A stretch of DNA of 38,501 bases from Escherichia phage RCF. The translations under genes were made by a program, and so were the position numbers. The stretch lies in sequence record OR941417.1, one strand, 5' to 3'. Below, in pieces: positions 29,501-38,501 of the stretch (the first letter of the stretch is position 1; each line of letters starts with the position of its first letter). A model generated the notes under the pieces. It saw only the letters and a list, made by a program, of their open reading frames with translations, made no database searches and was not told where the DNA came from.

Positions 29501-30491
29501 CGGAACATCAAACTACATTCTTGATGCTGCCCGTCAGGGTGTGCTTGGGGATGTGGCTGGAGCGGCCCTTGCTGGGAAAGCCTCTAAGTTCGGTAAGGCA
29601 AACTACCTTAAGTCTGCCTCTATCAGCCCTGAGCAGTGGAATGGAATCAAGCAGTTGTTCAGAGACTATGCGACTCGTGGAGAAGACGGTAAGTTCACCA
29701 TTCGTGACAAACAGGCTTTCGCTAACGACCCACGCTCAATGGACTTGTGGCGTCTGGCTGACAAGGTGGCTGATGAGACTATACTTCGTCCACACAAGGT
29801 TTCCTCACAGGATGCCAAGGCATACGGTGCCGGAGTTAAGATGGTGATGCAGTTTAAGAACTTCGTCATCAAGTCCCTGAACTCCCGGTTTGTCCGTAGC
29901 TTCTACGAGGCAACGAAGAACAACCGAGCGTTAGACCAAGCGTTGACTCATATCATCTCTTTGGGTCTAGCTGGTGGTTACTACGTTGGGCAGGCACACC
30001 TTAAGGCTGCAAGTCTACAGGAGCACAAACGTAAGGAGTACCTTAAGAACGCCCTTGACCCTAAGATGATTGCTCATGCGTCAATCTCTCGTAGTTCACA
30101 CTTAGGCTCACCATTGAGTATCTACGACATGTTCGCTGGTATGGTTGGTAGCGATACCTATAAGTACACCCGCTCTACGGTGCTCCCTAAAGAGTCCGAG
30201 AAGCGTGACCCTAACAAGGCAGTGACAGGTAGGCAGGTGGCTTCAACTATCGCAGGTGCAGTTGGTGAGCAGGTTCCGGGTTTAGGTTTTGTTGGCTCTG
30301 TTGGTGCAACAGCTATTAACGCCGCTTCCCTGCTGTCTTCTCCGAACAAGGCTACCGCTCTGGAGTTCCGTACAGGACTCTTCAACACCTCTCGTGAGTT
30401 GATTCCTAATGACCCGCTATCACAGCAACTCATTATGAAAATCTACGAGGCCAACGGTATCCGCATAAAGGAGACGCCGAAGAAACAATAA
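26529..30491 (+). CDS. 16: Internal virion (core) protein D with N-terminal lytic transglycosylase domain
   Basis: 1320 aa; the N-terminus (LLRKLAFNESSFNPKAKSPTGPKGLMQFTKGTA) fits a soluble lytic transglycosylase motif as in T7 gp16. Confidence 0.93.
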   Translation: MSYDKNKPSEFDGLFQKAADKHGVSYDLLRKLAFNESSFNPKAKSPTGPKGLMQFTKGTATALGLKVTDADDDDRYNPELAVDAAARHLSDLIRKYDGDELKAALAYNQGEGRNGAPQMQAYDKGDWASISEEGRNYMRNLIDVANSPRKGDLEAFGGITPKAKGIPSGDAFAGIGKKQTVGTDLPESTGFKVEGKEQKAPNVPYAKDFWEKTGTTLDEFNSRSTFFGIGDATSAELHNSVLGVAFRAARSDDGFDLFKDTITPTRWNSHTWTPEELERIRKEVKNPSYINVVTGGSPENLDALIKMANDNYEMDARSADAGVGAKLTAGIVGAGVDPLSYVPLVGVAGKGLKVVNKAFIVGTQSAGLAVASEGLRTSIAGGEAHYADAALGGLMFGAGMSAISDAIAAGIRRSRGTEVVNDFAPMAHRLEARETALNSGGEDLTRMPSENRVFDREHAGVEYSPLETEPGAVVLPQGQILSDTNPLNPQTLSEFEAVNPERASRGISLGGFTEIGLKTLRSENPTVRSIASDLVRSPTGMESGSNGKFGATASDIKERLHANNQRTYNQLYDAVRTAMKDPEFSTGGSKMSRKEIRQEIYKRAALAIERPELQANLTKGERNVMNILKQHFDLKREIMENPSIFGNTKAVSIFPGSRHKGTYVPNVYDRAIKIEMVKRYGNDGLQRAIAESWLTSYRARPEVKARVDEYLMELNGLKSVQEVTPEMVQKHAMDKAYGISHTDQFSASSVIEDNIEGLVGIENNNFLEARNMFDSDMAVTLPDGNTFSVNDLRTYDMAEILPAYDRRVDGDVAIMGGSGKTTKDLKDEIMALDKQSEGNGTLKGEVEALKDTVKILTGRARRNPEGAWGTALRSVNDLTFFAKNAYMGAQNITEIAGMLAKGNVSAITHGIPMINDWVNRGKPLRASEIKEIHGMVFGKELDQLIRPGREDHVRRLRESTDTSAAVANVVGTIRFGTQELAARSPWTMLLNGTSNYILDAARQGVLGDVAGAALAGKASKFGKANYLKSASISPEQWNGIKQLFRDYATRGEDGKFTIRDKQAFANDPRSMDLWRLADKVADETILRPHKVSSQDAKAYGAGVKMVMQFKNFVIKSLNSRFVRSFYEATKNNRALDQALTHIISLGLAGGYYVGQAHLKAASLQEHKRKEYLKNALDPKMIAHASISRSSHLGSPLSIYDMFAGMVGSDTYKYTRSTVLPKESEKRDPNKAVTGRQVASTIAGAVGEQVPGLGFVGSVGATAINAASLLSSPNKATALEFRTGLFNTSRELIPNDPLSQQLIMKIYEANGIRIKETPKKQ

Positions 30492-30510
30492 ACCCTCACT
30501 AAAGGGAGAG
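30487..30510 (+). promoter_or_regulatory. phi17: T3-type phage RNAP promoter, AATAAACCCTCACTAAAGGGAGAG
   Basis: Consensus match overlapping the gene 16 stop. Confidence 0.85.
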
Positions 30511-30562
30511 AGGTCACATTCTGGCCTCTTCTCTCTTAATGCTAATTTACAAAGGAGGTCAC

Positions 30563-32170
30563 ATGGCTACAACTATTAAGACCGTGATGACTTACCCGCT
30601 GGATGGCTCCACTACGGACTTTAATATTCCGTTCGAGTATCTGGCGCGTAAGTTCGTCAGAGTGACCCTTATCGGTGTTGACCGAAAGGAACTCATCTTG
30701 AATCAAGACTATCGTTTTGCGACTAAGACCACAATCTCCACAACGAGAGCATTGGGGCCAGCGGACGGTTATAACCTTATCGAGATTCGTCGGTACACCT
30801 CAGCGACTGAACGTCTGGTTGACTTTACGGATGGCTCAATCCTCCGTGCGTATGACCTGAACATCTCGCAGGTGCAGACCCTCCACGTTGCTGAGGAAGC
30901 GCGTGACCTTACCGCTGATACGATTGGCGTTAACAACGATGGCGACTTGGATGCTCGTGGTCGTCGTATCGTGAACGTTGCGGACGCTAAAGACCCCGGT
31001 GACGCAATCACTTTGGGTCAAGTCTCTCGGTGGAATGAGTCGGCACTGAACTCTAAGAATGCTGCTGCTGCATCTCAACAGGCCGCTGCTGCATCCCAAC
31101 AGGCCGCTAAGACCTCAGAGAACAACTCGAAGGTGTCTGAGAACAACGCAAAGACCTCCGAGAGTAACGCGCATCAATGGGCGCAGCGTGCAGAGGACTC
31201 TCCGGTTCAGGGTAGCGAGTTCTCTGCGTATCACTACTCACGGAAGGCCTCAAAGAGTGCCGCCGCCGCAAGTACGTCTGAGGGGAATGCAAAGACCTCT
31301 GAGAACAACGCAAAGACCTCTGAGAACAACGCAAAGACCTCTGAGAGCAACGCCGCTACCAGTGCTGCAACCGCTATCGCTGAGGCCGCCAAGTTGACAA
31401 ACATGAATGATTTTGCGACTACCATCAAGGCTGTTAACACAGCTACCTACTCGGTTTCGTGGAAAGGTGATGGCATGTTTGACGGCTCGGTCACTGCTGG
31501 TAAAGGACTTACAGTGTCTACTGGTGACGTCACCATTAACCAAGGAACGGGCAACTGGGTTTTCCTGAATGGGTACACAGCAGTTGGTGTTAACTACACA
31601 TCCAATGGCATTCGTACATCTAACCGAAACAATCAGCGCGTGGACGACTACACGTGGGAAGCGACAGGGCAGTATTTTGCCAAAGTAGTCCACGTATACC
31701 AAGCAGGCAATCCAAACATTCCAGAGTTCTTCTACGAGTTCCGAAACAATGGTACTGTGCAGTTGGGCCAAGTTAGGGCGATTGGTGGAGATGAATCCAC
31801 CTTCCAGCACAACGTTAATATCCAGTGGGGTGGCCGTGGCGCCCGTTATCAGGAAAATGGCGACATTGTGTCTATACAGGGGGATGCATCCATCTTCCGA
31901 GAATTTGGAGGAACACTTAGTGGTACAATTAACTGGCTTAAGAATGTTAACATTCAGGACGTTTGGTTAGGTGGTCAGGAGTGGTGGGGTTCTTTACGTG
32001 GCAACGGGAATAGCCGTTCTGACTGGGCATTGGGTGGAGGCTCAGTGTGTACTGGCGTGACTCAGGATATGACAGCAGGTGAGCGTAATGCTTGGATTGA
32101 TGGTATATTCCATCGTAAGGTCTGGATTCGTTATGGCTCTGGGCAGCAGCGCATCATTGCTTCTGTTTAA
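30563..32170 (+). CDS. 17: Tail fibre protein (conserved N-terminal tail-attachment domain, repeat-containing shaft, divergent C-terminal receptor-binding region)
   Basis: N-terminal ~150 aa match T7 gp17 (IKTV.TY.LDGS..DFNIPFEYLARKFV.VTLIGVDRK, GVNNDG.LDARGRRIVN); the rest diverges. True start is ATG 30563 after AAAGGAGG; track start 30539 lies in the 5' UTR. Confidence 0.9.
   Translation: MATTIKTVMTYPLDGSTTDFNIPFEYLARKFVRVTLIGVDRKELILNQDYRFATKTTISTTRALGPADGYNLIEIRRYTSATERLVDFTDGSILRAYDLNISQVQTLHVAEEARDLTADTIGVNNDGDLDARGRRIVNVADAKDPGDAITLGQVSRWNESALNSKNAAAASQQAAAASQQAAKTSENNSKVSENNAKTSESNAHQWAQRAEDSPVQGSEFSAYHYSRKASKSAAAASTSEGNAKTSENNAKTSENNAKTSESNAATSAATAIAEAAKLTNMNDFATTIKAVNTATYSVSWKGDGMFDGSVTAGKGLTVSTGDVTINQGTGNWVFLNGYTAVGVNYTSNGIRTSNRNNQRVDDYTWEATGQYFAKVVHVYQAGNPNIPEFFYEFRNNGTVQLGQVRAIGGDESTFQHNVNIQWGGRGARYQENGDIVSIQGDASIFREFGGTLSGTINWLKNVNIQDVWLGGQEWWGSLRGNGNSRSDWALGGGSVCTGVTQDMTAGERNAWIDGIFHRKVWIRYGSGQQRIIASV
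31061..31351 (+). repeat. In-frame 21-bp (heptad) tandem repeats within tail fibre gene 17: block 1 at 31061..31169 (5 units), block 2 at 31289..31351 (3 units, 62/63 nt identical)
   Basis: Units GCAAAGACCTCTGAGAACAAC x2 then GCAAAGACCTCTGAGAGCAAC (AKTSENN/AKTSESN); upstream units encode AAASQQA x2 and AKTSENN/SKVSENN/AKTSESN. Confidence 0.9.
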
Positions 32171-32180
32171 GGAGAACAAT

Positions 32181-32567
32181 ATGGTTAAGTATGAAAACTG
32201 GAAGTGGACTAACGGTGAACAAGTCGGGCCTGATCGTTATATCGCCGAGATTAACATTGGGGAACTCTCTTGGTACGACCTGATGGAAGACTTGGATAAG
32301 CAAGGAGAACGTGTGGTCGTCGGTGTGTCCAGCGATGGAAGCGTCAACTGGTTCACCGATGGTCGGGTATCAGGTGTTCACGCCCCGTCTGATGGGACAA
32401 GTGTTGTTGTGGTTGATAGTGTCCCATTCACTCAGGAAGACTATCGACAATTCATCTTGGTAGGCAACGAGTTCCAGCGTAAGGAAAGCACGCTAACTCC
32501 GCGCACTAAGGAAGACATCATGGCTGACTTAATTAAACTTCAAGAGGAACTGAAAGCTATGGCATAG
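32181..32567 (+). CDS. Hypothetical 128-aa acidic protein between tail fibre and holin; family not recognised
   Basis: ATG 32181 with RBS TAAGGAGAACAAT, 10 nt after the gene 17 stop, no phage promoter of its own. No TM segment. Track start 32079 is inside gene 17 and unlikely. Confidence 0.6.
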   Translation: MVKYENWKWTNGEQVGPDRYIAEINIGELSWYDLMEDLDKQGERVVVGVSSDGSVNWFTDGRVSGVHAPSDGTSVVVVDSVPFTQEDYRQFILVGNEFQRKESTLTPRTKEDIMADLIKLQEELKAMA

Positions 32568-32607
32568 CGATAAAGAACAAGGATGTTCACACATAAGGAG
32601 AACAAGA

Positions 32608-32811
32608 ATGTTATCTTTTGACTTCAATAACGAGGTCGTTAAGGCTGCGCCGATTGTTGGCACAGGGGTCGCTGATGGTGCGGCCCGACTCTTTTGGGGA
32701 CTATCGTTAAACGAATGGTTCTACGTTGCAGCTATCGCCTACACAGTGGTTCAGATTGGTGCCAAGGTAGTCGATAAAATGATTGACTGGAAACGTGCAA
32801 ATAAGGAGTAA
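32608..32811 (+). CDS. 17.5: Type II holin
   Basis: 67 aa, near-identical in pattern to T7 gp17.5 (ML.DFNNE..KAAPIVGTGVAD..ARLF.GLSLNEWFYVAAIAYTVVQIGAKVVDKMIDWK.ANKE). Confidence 0.92.
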   Translation: MLSFDFNNEVVKAAPIVGTGVADGAARLFWGLSLNEWFYVAAIAYTVVQIGAKVVDKMIDWKRANKE

Positions 32812-32814
32812 CCT

Positions 32815-33081
32815 ATGAGCGACAAGACTTTAATCAAGCTGCTGGAGATGCTGGACACGGAGATGGCACAGCGTATGCTTGCTGACCTCCAGAGCGAGGA
32901 ACGCCGAACTCCGCAGCTTTACAACGCAATCGGCAAACTGTTAGACCGCCATAAGTTCCAAATCAGTAAGCTGACCCCGGATGAGAACATCCTTGGCGGT
33001 CTCGCGGCTGGTCTGGAAGACTACAACAAAGTGGTCGGCCCTAATGGTCTGACTGACGATGAGACTATCACGCTACAGTAA
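32815..33081 (+). CDS. 18: Terminase small subunit (DNA maturation protein A)
   Basis: 88-aa ORF in the gene 18 position, followed by an RNase III-type hairpin. Confidence 0.9.
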   Translation: MSDKTLIKLLEMLDTEMAQRMLADLQSEERRTPQLYNAIGKLLDRHKFQISKLTPDENILGGLAAGLEDYNKVVGPNGLTDDETITLQ

Positions 33082-33085
33082 GTGA

Positions 33086-33124
33086 CATACTCAAGGTTCT
33101 CCACGCGGGGAGCCTTTATGGATG
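33086..33124 (+). promoter_or_regulatory. RNase III-type processing hairpin (ACTCAAGGTTCTCCACGCGGGGAGCCTTTATGGATG)
   Basis: Same motif family, between genes 18 and 18.5. Confidence 0.65.
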
Positions 33125-33170
33125 TTATTTGGTGCATCTATGTGAAATCTGAAAATTGATGGGAGGTGTT

Positions 33171-33623
33171 ATGCTAAAACTTTTACGCAGCGCACTCCCT
33201 TGGGTACTCGCCGGGACACTCTTTATGGGTGGCTGGCACTTAGGATCAACCCATGAGAGAGCAAACTGGAAGGAGGTAATCCAAAATGAATACATTGCGA
33301 AAACAAAAGCAACCGCAGCAACTCAGGCAGAGGTCAGTCGGGTATCCCGTGAGTACCAAGAAGAGATTGCAGCCATTGAAGGCAGCACTGATAGGATGCT
33401 TAATGACCTGCGTAGTAATAATAAGCGGCTGTCAGTCCGCATCAAAACCCTTACCGGACTACCAGAAGATAACGGTAGATGCGAGTTTAATGGTCGAGCC
33501 GAACTACACGAGTCAGATGCTAAGCGTATTATCGGAATAACCCAAGCTGCTGATGCTCACGTAAGAGCGCTCCAGCGTACTATTAAGGAGATGCAGAATG
33601 AGCGACACCCAAGCAAACCGTAA
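33171..33623 (+). CDS. 18.5: Rz-like i-spanin (inner-membrane spanin subunit)
   Basis: N-terminal TM segment then coiled region; matches T7 gp18.5 (LIPWVLAG.LF..GWHLGS...KW, EGSTDR...DLRS.NKRL.VR.KT). Start at ATG 33171 after GGGAGG. Confidence 0.85.
33286..33540 (+). CDS. 18.7: Rz1-like o-spanin (outer-membrane lipoprotein), fully embedded in 18.5 in another frame
   Basis: 84 aa with lipoprotein signal and lipobox (VVIISGC); resembles T7 gp18.7 (..ALIG....CV.TISGC..., SLMVEPN.T..ML.V.S). Confidence 0.8.
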   Translation: MNTLRKQKQPQQLRQRSVGYPVSTKKRLQPLKAALIGCLMTCVVIISGCQSASKPLPDYQKITVDASLMVEPNYTSQMLSVLSE

Positions 33624-35361
33624 TGCGCTAATCATCGCGCAGCTTAAGGGTGACTTCGTGGCCTTCCTGTTCGTATTGTGGAAGGCTTTGGCTCTCCCGC
33701 CGCCAACTAAGTGTCAGATTGATATGGCCCGGTGTCTGGCTAACGGAGACAACAAGAAGTTTATCCTACAGGCTTTCCGTGGTATCGGGAAGTCATTCAT
33801 CACCTGTGCGTTCGTTGTGTGGACGTTATGGCGTGACCCACAGTTGAAGATACTAATTGTCTCTGCATCCAAAGAACGTGCGGACGCTAACTCCATCTTC
33901 ATCAAGAACATCATTGACCTGCTGCCCTTCTTGGCTGAGCTAAAACCTCGCCCCGGTCAGCGTGACTCTGTGATTAGTTTCGATGTTGGCCCTGCCAAGC
34001 CTGACCACTCTCCGTCTGTGAAGTCGGTGGGTATCACTGGTCAGTTGACTGGTAGTCGTGCTGATATCATCATAGCGGATGACGTTGAGATTCCGTCTAA
34101 CTCCGCAACTCAAGGTGCCCGTGAGAAGCTGTGGACTCTGGTGCAGGAATTTGCTGCGCTTCTGAAACCGCTGCCGACTTCTCGCGTTATCTACCTTGGC
34201 ACGCCTCAAACCGAAATGACCTTGTACAAGGAACTCGAAGATAACCGTGGGTACACCACAATCATCTGGCCTGCGCTCTATCCGCGTAGCCGTGAGGAAG
34301 ACTTGTACTATGGCGACCGTCTGGCCCCTATGCTCCGCGAAGAGTTCAACGATGGGTTCGAGATGCTCCAAGGTCAACCAACTGACCCCGTGCGCTTCGA
34401 TATGGAAGACCTGCGTGAGCGTGAGTTGGAATACGGTAAGGCTGGCTTCACTTTGCAGTTCATGCTCAACCCGAACCTGAGTGATGCCGAGAAGTACCCC
34501 TTACGCCTCCGTGACGCTATCGTGTGCGGTCTGGACTTCGAGAAAGCCCCAATGCATTACCAGTGGCTTCCGAACCGTCAGAATCGCAATGAAGAGCTTC
34601 CTAACGTGGGCCTTAAGGGTGATGATATTCATAGCTATCATTCGTGCAGCCAGAACACTGGACAGTACCAGCAACGCATCCTCGTGATTGACCCTAGTGG
34701 TCGCGGTAAGGATGAGACAGGTTACGCAGTGTTGTTCACCCTGAATGGCTACATCTATCTGATGGAAGCTGGCGGGTTCCGCGATGGTTATTCCGATAAG
34801 ACCCTTGAGTCCCTCTCTAAGAAAGCGAAGCAGTGGAAGGTTCAGACAGTGGTCTTCGAGAGTAACTTCGGGGATGGTATGTTTGGTAAGGTATTCAGCC
34901 CTGTGCTCCTGAAACACCATGCAGCGCAACTTGAAGAGATTCGTGCTCGTGGTATGAAGGAACTACGCATTTGTGATACGCTGGAGCCTGTACTCTCTAC
35001 GCACCGCCTTGTGATTCGTGACGAGGTGATTCGTGAGGACTACCAGACTGCCCGTGACGCTGATGGCAAGCACGACGTTCGCTATTCGCTGTTCTACCAG
35101 TTGACCCGTATGGCTCGTGAGAAGGGCGCTGTGGCCCACGATGACCGACTTGATGCGTTAGCATTGGGTGTGGAGTTCTTACGCTCTACGATGGAACTGG
35201 ACGCCGTGAAGGTGGAGGCTGAGGTGCTTGAGGCGTTCTTAGAGGAACACATGGAGCACCCAATCCATTCGGCTGGTCATGTAGTCACCTCTATGGTTGA
35301 CGGTATGGAACTCTATTGGGAGGATGACGATGTGAATGGCAATAGGTTCATTGACTGGTAG
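33598..35361 (+). CDS. 19: Terminase large subunit (DNA maturation protein B)
   Basis: 587 aa, highly similar to T7 gp19 along its length ([81 protein letters not shown]). Confidence 0.97.
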
Positions 35362-35441: not shown

Positions 35442-35466
35442 AATTAACCCTCACTAAAGGGAGAGA
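35442..35466 (+). promoter_or_regulatory. phiOR: T3-type phage RNAP promoter (phiOR-like), GAATTAACCCTCACTAAAGGGAGAG
   Basis: Perfect consensus match near the right end, upstream of gene 19.5. Confidence 0.85.
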
Positions 35467-38233: not shown

Positions 38234-38501
38234 ATGACTTTCACCGAAGCACAAGCCGCACTCGAAGCTATCCGCAACCTACCGATTGAGCGCCTGAACG
38301 AACGCCAGCCCATGCTGGTGGCTCTTGCGGCTGCTATCGTGAACGCTGAGACTCAAGACGGGCAACTGACGCAGGCCAAGGGTAATTGGGGTCTGGAGTC
38401 GATGGACTACTGGCAGACACTGGCGGAGCGTATGCGTGATGTTGGTTTCGTCAAGCTGGGCAACGGTCACTTTAGCGCAGCCTATGAACACGCACTGCTA
38501 C
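38234..38501 (+). CDS. 0.7: Gene 0.7 protein kinase, N-terminal portion (3' end truncated by window end; continues in frame at window start)
   Basis: ATG 38234; MTFTEAQAALEAIRNLPIERLNERQPMLVALAAAIVNAETQDGQLTQAKGNWGLESMDYWQTLAERM... runs to the window end, and the last 127 nt are identical to nt 1..127. Confidence 0.85.
   Translation, partial: MTFTEAQAALEAIRNLPIERLNERQPMLVALAAAIVNAETQDGQLTQAKGNWGLESMDYWQTLAERMRDVGFVKLGNGHFSAAYEHALL
38375..38501 (+). repeat. Window wrap-around: these 127 nt are identical to nt 1..127 (circular permutation or assembly overlap, not a biological repeat)
   Basis: Direct comparison of the first and last 127 nt of the window; the overlap falls inside gene 0.7. Confidence 0.95.

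Follow-up and report, generated by a model that had tools for sequence, protein, structure and literature searches.

Tail fibre assembly (Tfa) proteins are modular: a variable N-terminal domain attaches to the distal fibre, while trimerisation is the task of a conserved helical domain at the C-terminus (PMC9608196). The chaperones of Mu and Ur-lambda remain on the virion and those of T4 (gp38) and Pam3 (gp25) do not (PMC9608196). A module of fibre and chaperone is common to Alteromonas phages of different families (PMC10579305). Among T7-group phages, the BASEL phage EmilieLinder (Bas103, Teseptimavirus) carries a Mu-like Tfa, Gp60, after the gp17-type fibre Gp59, and the two proteins are predicted to assemble as a hexameric fibre-chaperone complex like that of Mu (PMC11990801).

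Here we analysed a 128-aa ORF located between tail fibre gene 17 and the holin gene of Escherichia phage RCF (OR941417.1). The window, i.e., the whole stretch of DNA that was analysed, is 38,501 nt long. The small ORF very probably codes for a shortened protein of the Tfa type (lambda Tfa, Mu U, P2 G), i.e., a tail-fibre assembly chaperone that acts in trans. The locus is a fairly ordinary and widespread host-range cassette that dozens of sequenced phages already carry, and nothing here overturns current understanding.

Layout and expression signals of the locus

The window is a T3-like phage genome whose region 30500-33100 shares 97% identity with Klebsiella phage vB_KpP_GP-5 (Teetrevirus). 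The features of the locus are as follows.

30488..30509, plus strand: T3-type late promoter ATAAACCCTCACTAAAGGGAGA upstream of gene 17, 1 mismatch to the consensus
30560..32170, plus strand: gene 17, tail fibre (Pfam Phage_T7_tail, E 3.6e-58; PHROG tail fibre families)
30563..31027, plus strand: N-terminal tail-attachment domain of gp17, conserved backbone part (Pfam PF03906, aa 9-163 of the 543-aa ORF)
31064..31374, plus strand: fibre shaft with 21-nt (heptad) tandem repeats AAASQQA and AKTSENN
31417..32590, plus strand: exchanged host-range module, consisting of the distal fibre (from about aa 286 onward), the small ORF and a 3' spacer (blastn breakpoints)
32168..32179, plus strand: gene 17 stop TAA within the small ORF Shine-Dalgarno sequence TAAGGAGAACAA, with the ATG next at 32181
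32181..32567, plus strand: small ORF, 128 aa, 14.5 kDa, pI 4.47, probable short-form Tfa-like tail-fibre assembly protein
32181..32498, plus strand: N-terminal beta-rich domain of the small ORF, aa 1-106, with a SWYDLM motif, predicted to bind the fibre tip
32499..32564, plus strand: C-terminal tail of the small ORF, aa 107-128, PRTKEDIMADLIKLQEELKAMA, predicted single helix, near-invariant in the family
32608..32811, plus strand: gene 17.5, class II holin (Pfam Phage_holin_2_2, E 1.4e-33; Shine-Dalgarno sequence at 32594-32605), downstream backbone flank

With the ATG that GP-5 has as its start, gene 17 encodes 536 aa; the longest possible ORF begins at 30539 and has 543 aa. The small ORF runs from its ATG at 32181 to a TAG stop at 32565-32567 and is separated by a 10-nt gap from the gene 17 stop (TAA, 32168-32170). 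The original prediction of a 128-codon ORF starting 10 nt after gene 17 matches these coordinates and the translation exactly, and the product is acidic as it stated. The ORFs on the minus strand across the locus are short (44-49 aa). Compared with GP-5, 9 of 10 nucleotide differences within the small ORF fall at third codon positions (8 synonymous and 2 non-synonymous codons). The small ORF is real, coding and under purifying selection, and its family is well conserved in alignment. The two blocks of 21-nt repeats in the gene 17 shaft could permit slippage or unequal recombination that alters fibre length. Klebsiella phage depolymerases of solved structure (e.g., 7lzj) have a repeat akin to those of the shaft, AKTSE(D/N)NAK, in their N-terminal part.

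Twelve matches to T3-type promoters were found in the window against 0 expected. The promoter at 30488-30509 precedes gene 17, and one is annotated at the equivalent place in the GP-5 record; the next lies at 35443, with none between. No phage promoter other than the one at 30488-30509 can drive gene 17, the small ORF and the holin gene. A terminator pattern scan of the interval between gene 17 and the small ORF gave no convincing terminator. With no promoter between the genes and no convincing terminator, the straightforward reading is that the small ORF is co-transcribed with gene 17, as had been predicted from the lack of a phage promoter of its own. An Rfam scan of 30300-33700 on both strands gave no match above the gathering scores. 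A weak match to CRISPR-DR42 at 32165-32198 on the minus strand (29.9 bits, gathering score 40, E 0.17) is almost certainly due to chance.

The resemblance noted earlier between the ribosome binding sites of the small ORF and the holin gene is exact over 12 bases: TAAGGAGAACAA precedes both genes and occurs in just two copies in the 38.5-kb window, at 32168 (small ORF) and 32594 (holin). It had been read as an insertion that copied the junction, and this part of the original prediction did not hold up. A fibre stop codon inside a TAAGGAG Shine-Dalgarno sequence was also found in N30, Pila, pEp11, D226 and Koku and is the usual arrangement for the family in T7-like phages. Beyond TAAGGAG, the two sites of the window have only AACAA (5 bases) in common. 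Since the overlap of stop and Shine-Dalgarno sequence is normal for the family, a junction duplication is not needed and was rejected as unnecessary.

Exchange boundaries, distribution and pairing with fibre tips

In the T3 reference genome (NC_003298) the holin gene directly follows gene 17 and the small ORF is absent, in agreement with the T7-group layout given in the original prediction; the Teetrevirus ECA2 is alike. Nucleotide alignment to ECA2 (blastn) gave the boundaries of the difference: homology ends inside gene 17 at 31416 and returns at the holin ribosome binding site at 32591, from where the window has 98% nucleotide identity with ECA2. Between these points 1174 nt of the window (31417-32590) replace 838 nt of ECA2. 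The event was thus a replacement of the distal fibre with addition of the ORF, not the simple insertion first supposed. Compared with VSG32 and KPP-5, homology ends at about 31055-31060 and returns at 32501, i.e., at codon 107, where the helix segment of the small ORF starts. The KPP-5 small ORF (2301-2741 of segment L013, aligned to 32181-32607 of the window) has an N-domain of the VSG32 type (80% identical), with a C-terminal tail and 3' spacer identical to those of the window, and its mosaic joint lies at the conserved helix. It follows from the return of homology at 32501 and the KPP-5 mosaic that the conserved helix-coding segment also serves as a recombination joint.

The first 150 aa of gp17 show 75-99% identity among T7-like relatives regardless of tip type. 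The conserved fibre N-terminus and divergent C-terminal region described earlier were seen here as well, as the Pfam match covers only aa 9-163 and the distal part is unrelated to that of ECA2 at the nucleotide level. The argument that a longer genome fits the extra content did not stand: the T3 length of 38208 bp counts the terminal repeats and the 38374-nt unit of the window does not, so that one figure cannot be set directly against the other. Between the starts of gene 17 and of the holin gene, the window exceeds T3 by only about 313 nt. The first 127 nt of the window recur without mismatch at its end (1-127 = 38375-38501, unit 38374 nt); this direct repeat is the terminal repeat or else an overlap of a circular assembly.

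In tblastn searches a homologue of the small ORF was found in about 55 deposited phage genomes, from phages of Klebsiella, Escherichia, Erwinia, Pantoea, Serratia, Yersinia, Citrobacter and Dickeya. A divergent subtype of 144-146 aa (VSG32/KPP-5) occupies the same slot in further Teetreviruses. The family profile matched 42 clusters (50% identity) at E<=1e-3 among 1.84 billion representative proteins. Judging from these searches, the family is small, and it is restricted to phages that infect enterobacteria and related bacteria. Two long profile matches (P0038 and P0041) are cadherin and Ig-repeat proteins and were treated as spurious. Escherichia phage ST2 (OM982647, 171 kb) was discarded as a myovirus host of the family, as the record is partial and appears chimeric with a T7-like block. 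In ST2 (labelled Kagunavirus) a fibre fragment, a family member, a class II holin and a small terminase stand beside unrelated genes, probably because of a chimeric assembly or a mixed lysate.

Database labels for the gene disagree: 'hypothetical protein', 'tail fiber assembly protein', 'tail fiber assembly protein U' and 'ssDNA-binding protein' are all used. The last is found in MW600722 (KPP-5, 2277-2741 of segment L013), MN013074 (Emp27), MZ428229 (VAC1), OM103160 (VR4605) and MK542821/NC_048164 (HZP2), and looks like a propagated mis-annotation. In BASEL phage AnnaIndermaur (Bas104), a sister of Bas103, a short-form member is labelled 'hypothetical protein'. Because no Pfam, PHROG or NCBIfam model covers the gene, a dedicated family model would fix the inconsistent names in about 55 genomes.

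The gene order is constant. At 21 of 21 loci with upstream sequence, a long fibre ORF on the same strand ends at the start of the family member, and the holin is next. The T4-like Erwinia phage Cronus has the order distal long tail fibre, family member, holin, and IMG/VR contigs L023 and L025 have a fibre, a member and a Pfam-confirmed T-type holin. In L025 two consecutive pairs of fibre and small ORF precede the T-type holin, and the helix is found only in the second small ORF. The window fibre (aa 238-543) is 34% identical to the distal long tail fibre of Cronus (E 1e-42) and the two small proteins are 43% identical, so that tip and ORF are common to a podovirus and a myovirus as a pair.

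The small protein also varies together with the fibre tip. Across 11 loci, in which three near-identical pairs contribute to the result, the identities of fibre tips and of small-protein N-domains were correlated (Mantel r 0.81, p 2e-4). The N-terminal attachment domain of the fibre showed no such relation in the same comparison (11 loci; r 0.19, p 0.08). The original suggestion that the ORF and the fibre C-terminal region were swapped together is borne out by the ECA2 breakpoints, the co-variation with the tip and the paired occurrence in Cronus. On these alignments, the distal fibre together with the small ORF has evidently displaced a T3-type tip.

A search for homologous proteins with the fibre tip found none. 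By sequence against PDB, only the heptad repeats of the shaft were matched, to the N-terminus of a Klebsiella depolymerase. A comparison of the fibre-tip profile with the Mu S/S' tip, in which an end-to-end motif is visible, is suggestive only (hhalign E 1e-3, probability 22%), and the single-sequence AF2 model of the tip has a pLDDT of 30. No intramolecular chaperone domain (Peptidase_S74) was found in gp17, which has only Phage_T7_tail and weak sub-threshold matches, in line with a fibre dependent on a trans-acting helper. Over about 90 aa, the chaperone-less T3 gp17 (NC_003298) matches ORF-bearing tips (VSG32, Cronus, Kp31) with E 1e-7 to 1e-5. It has about 45 extra C-terminal residues and ends differently from the window fibre.

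Fold and homology of the small protein

The small ORF gave no significant match in Pfam, PHROGs, NCBIfam or PADLOC, and a PDB search with the family sequence profile gave no match. Pfam Caudo_TAP (PF02413; gathering score 22.1 bits) did not match the window ORF even at E<=1, nor the VSG32 and Cronus members; the Mu U control scored 127 bits. The original prediction had left the ORF unplaced, which is right as far as curated HMM libraries are concerned. As a statement about the gene it is not, since the 97% identical GP-5 already has it labelled 'tail fiber assembly protein' and a Mu-like Tfa has been described after the fibre of another T7-group phage (PMC11990801).

The AF2 model of the small protein (mean pLDDT 90.4) consists of a beta-rich N-terminal domain (aa 1-100) followed by one helix (aa 110-127). 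In Foldseek the sole match was the Mu tail fibre assembly protein (5YVQ chain B) with a probability of 1.00, the next match having 0.08. In the BFVD viral library, the best matches outside the family are canonical myovirus tail fibre assembly proteins of 137-199 aa. By structure comparison, the N-domain of the predicted model has the TfaMu fold.

A sequence link to Tfa proteins was found through intermediates. Five weaker matches of the family profile (173-179 aa) exceed the Caudo_TAP threshold in their C-terminal halves, and the family profile matches their N-terminal halves with E 2e-7 to 5e-4 (1.84-billion library). By hhalign, the family aligns with these five Caudo_TAP proteins plus Mu U with a probability of 99.4% and E 1e-21 (113 columns), up to the first turn of the C-terminal helix. 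The family profile against Mu U alone was not significant; the sequence link therefore leans on intermediate proteins which were themselves found with the family profile. Taken together, the hhalign result and the fold match indicate that the small ORF is homologous to the fibre-binding N-domain of Tfa proteins, and to that domain only.

The canonical Caudo_TAP C-domain of about 60-70 residues is absent, as the protein ends after the single helix. Its motifs (..I.PLQDA..L..AT.EE...L..WK.YR..L.RVD...WP..P), which are seen in the Caudo_TAP set, are missing from the family alignment. Since the C-domain that defines the Pfam family is absent, we classed the small ORF as a short-form variant and not as a plain Tfa member. 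The helix (RTKEDIMADLxKLQEEL) is invariant in 18 of 18 aligned members and recognisable in the myovirus copies too. Its hydrophobic residues (113, 117, 120, 124 and 127) have a 4-3-4-3 spacing compatible with a helical bundle, and the helix may form such a bundle. Two members, the 105-aa product of contig L025 (350-667) and protein P0039 (106 aa), have the N-domain only and lack the helix.

A more extended reading is put forward here tentatively and is on balance doubtful. The small ORF would be a minimal Tfa in which the C-domain has shrunk to one near-invariant 20-residue helix. As protein, the helix would be a universal trimerisation handle for many unrelated tips. As DNA, it would be a fixed right-hand homology arm with which tip plus N-domain pass as a unit between podoviruses (T7/T3-like) and large myoviruses (T4-like or other). 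The protein could act as a transient cap if the bundle covers the tip until release. In the open-access literature we found no description of the short form, with one invariant helix in place of the Caudo_TAP C-domain, and none of its serving as an exchange joint.

Proposed function and comparison with known systems

The fibre chaperone suggested as one option in the original prediction became the probable function, given the Mu fold match, the homology to the Caudo_TAP N-domain, the position next to the fibre and the co-variation with the tip. The proposed mechanism is as follows. The small ORF shares the promoter at 30488 with gene 17, and the Shine-Dalgarno sequence for its translation overlaps the fibre stop, so that the protein is probably made alongside the fibre. 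The predicted target of the N-domain (aa 1-106) is the very C-terminal end of the gp17 tip, with one chaperone per fibre chain, and the C-terminal helices are predicted to come together in a short three-helix bundle. Such a bundle would put three fibre C-termini in register, and trimerisation would begin at the distal end. We infer that the small protein binds the tip physically, that the helix trimerises and that the fibre depends on the ORF. A tip of the T3/T7 type needs no such helper to fold; its terminal domain may play in cis the part that the small ORF has in trans. A tip type common to T4-like long tail fibres has taken the place of the former distal fibre, and the putative chaperone came along with it, making up a two-gene host-range cassette.

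The closest competitor to this mechanism is that the Tfa homologue is mainly a virion component, which stays on the tip and aids receptor recognition or forms a transient cap, and is thus a second host-range factor. It overlaps with the chaperone explanation and differs only in the fate of the protein after assembly. The nearest structural match, the Mu protein, was crystallised bound to its fibre; the chaperones of Mu and Ur-lambda are present in mature phages and are said to aid receptor recognition (PMC9608196), and a 'transient chaperone cap' was proposed for the fibre chaperones of Alteromonas phages (PMC10579305). However, T4 gp38 and Pam3 gp25 are absent from mature particles, and it is the gp38 slot that the family occupies in T4-like phages. 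The co-variation of N-domain and tip fits the matching of a chaperone to its client and is by itself no sign of host contact. We regard a mainly virion role as possible but rather unlikely. The same gp38 slot could speak for an adhesin of the T2/S16 type, i.e., a separate receptor-binding protein that caps the tip and contacts the receptor, as the slot protein in the T2 subfamily is an adhesin (note in the T4 record). The features of such adhesins, a polyglycine-rich receptor-binding domain and the fold of PDB 6F45, were not found in the small protein, and this role is very improbable.

An unrelated accessory gene (moron) between gene 17 and the holin gene, with a role such as anti-defence or superinfection exclusion, was also considered. 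Accessory genes are often located where structural and lysis genes meet, and no curated family matches the protein. Nevertheless, there was no PADLOC match, the fold and the N-domain homology point to Tfa, and an independent moron would neither stay next to the fibre gene in podoviruses and large myoviruses nor have an N-domain that tracks the tip. A moron is thus as hard to credit as the adhesin. A single-stranded DNA-binding function has a negligible chance of being correct. It is suggested by nothing but the product names in the GenBank records of KPP-5, Emp27, VAC1, VR4605 and HZP2. No SSB/OB-fold match was found in Pfam or NCBIfam (the best NCBIfam match is CspE with 15 bits against a cutoff of 120), no SSB/OB-fold protein is among the structural matches, and the gene lies in the late structural/lysis block, always after the fibre gene.

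Host-range engineering by gp17 swaps mainly uses T3 and T7 as chassis. If tips of this kind fold only with the cognate ORF, distal fibre and ORF (roughly 31417-32590) would have to be transplanted as one unit. Junctions for engineering would naturally be placed in the conserved helix-coding segment and at the holin ribosome binding site. As a naturally minimised Tfa with a single C-terminal helix, the small protein also offers a route to test what the conserved Tfa C-domain does. The locus adds an enterobacterial case of the cassette of fibre tip and chaperone that is common to podoviruses and T4-like myoviruses.

Compared with Mu U (TfaMu, 5YVQ chain B) and the other Caudo_TAP proteins (lambda Tfa, P2 G, Mu U/U'), the likely short-form chaperone is alike in its N-domain fold and its position downstream of the fibre gene. 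Its evolution is also modular as in Tfa, with a variable N-domain matched to the fibre tip and a conserved C-terminal part. It differs in size (128 aa instead of about 175-195 aa), in having the 20-residue helix in place of the C-domain, and in its carriers, which are T7/T3-like podoviruses and some T4-like myoviruses and not Mu, P2 or lambdoid phages. Bas103 is the published precedent of a T7-group podovirus with a separate Tfa gene right after the fibre gene; Gp60 was compared by description only.

T4 gp38, the chaperone of gp37, has the same presumed job of aiding trimerisation of the distal fibre (PMC9608196). It occupies the same slot as the family members in the T4-like relatives Cronus, L023 and L025: the T4 order is 37-38-t, and its counterpart in the window is gp17, small ORF and class II holin. 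The family has no detectable similarity to T4 gp38 by hhalign (probability 0.7%), and T4 gp38 (183 aa) matched no Pfam family either. T4 also needs gp57A. The chaperones of Pam3 (gp25) and of Alteromonas phages V22 and A5 are likewise trans-acting, with a fibre-binding beta domain and a trimerising helical C-terminal domain. Fibres and spikes with Peptidase_S74 domains (T5 pb1, K1F endosialidase) follow the same logic, in that a C-terminal module acts as the nucleus for trimerisation at the distal end. Those domains are cis-acting, auto-cleaved parts of the fibre, whereas in this locus the putative helper is a separate gene.
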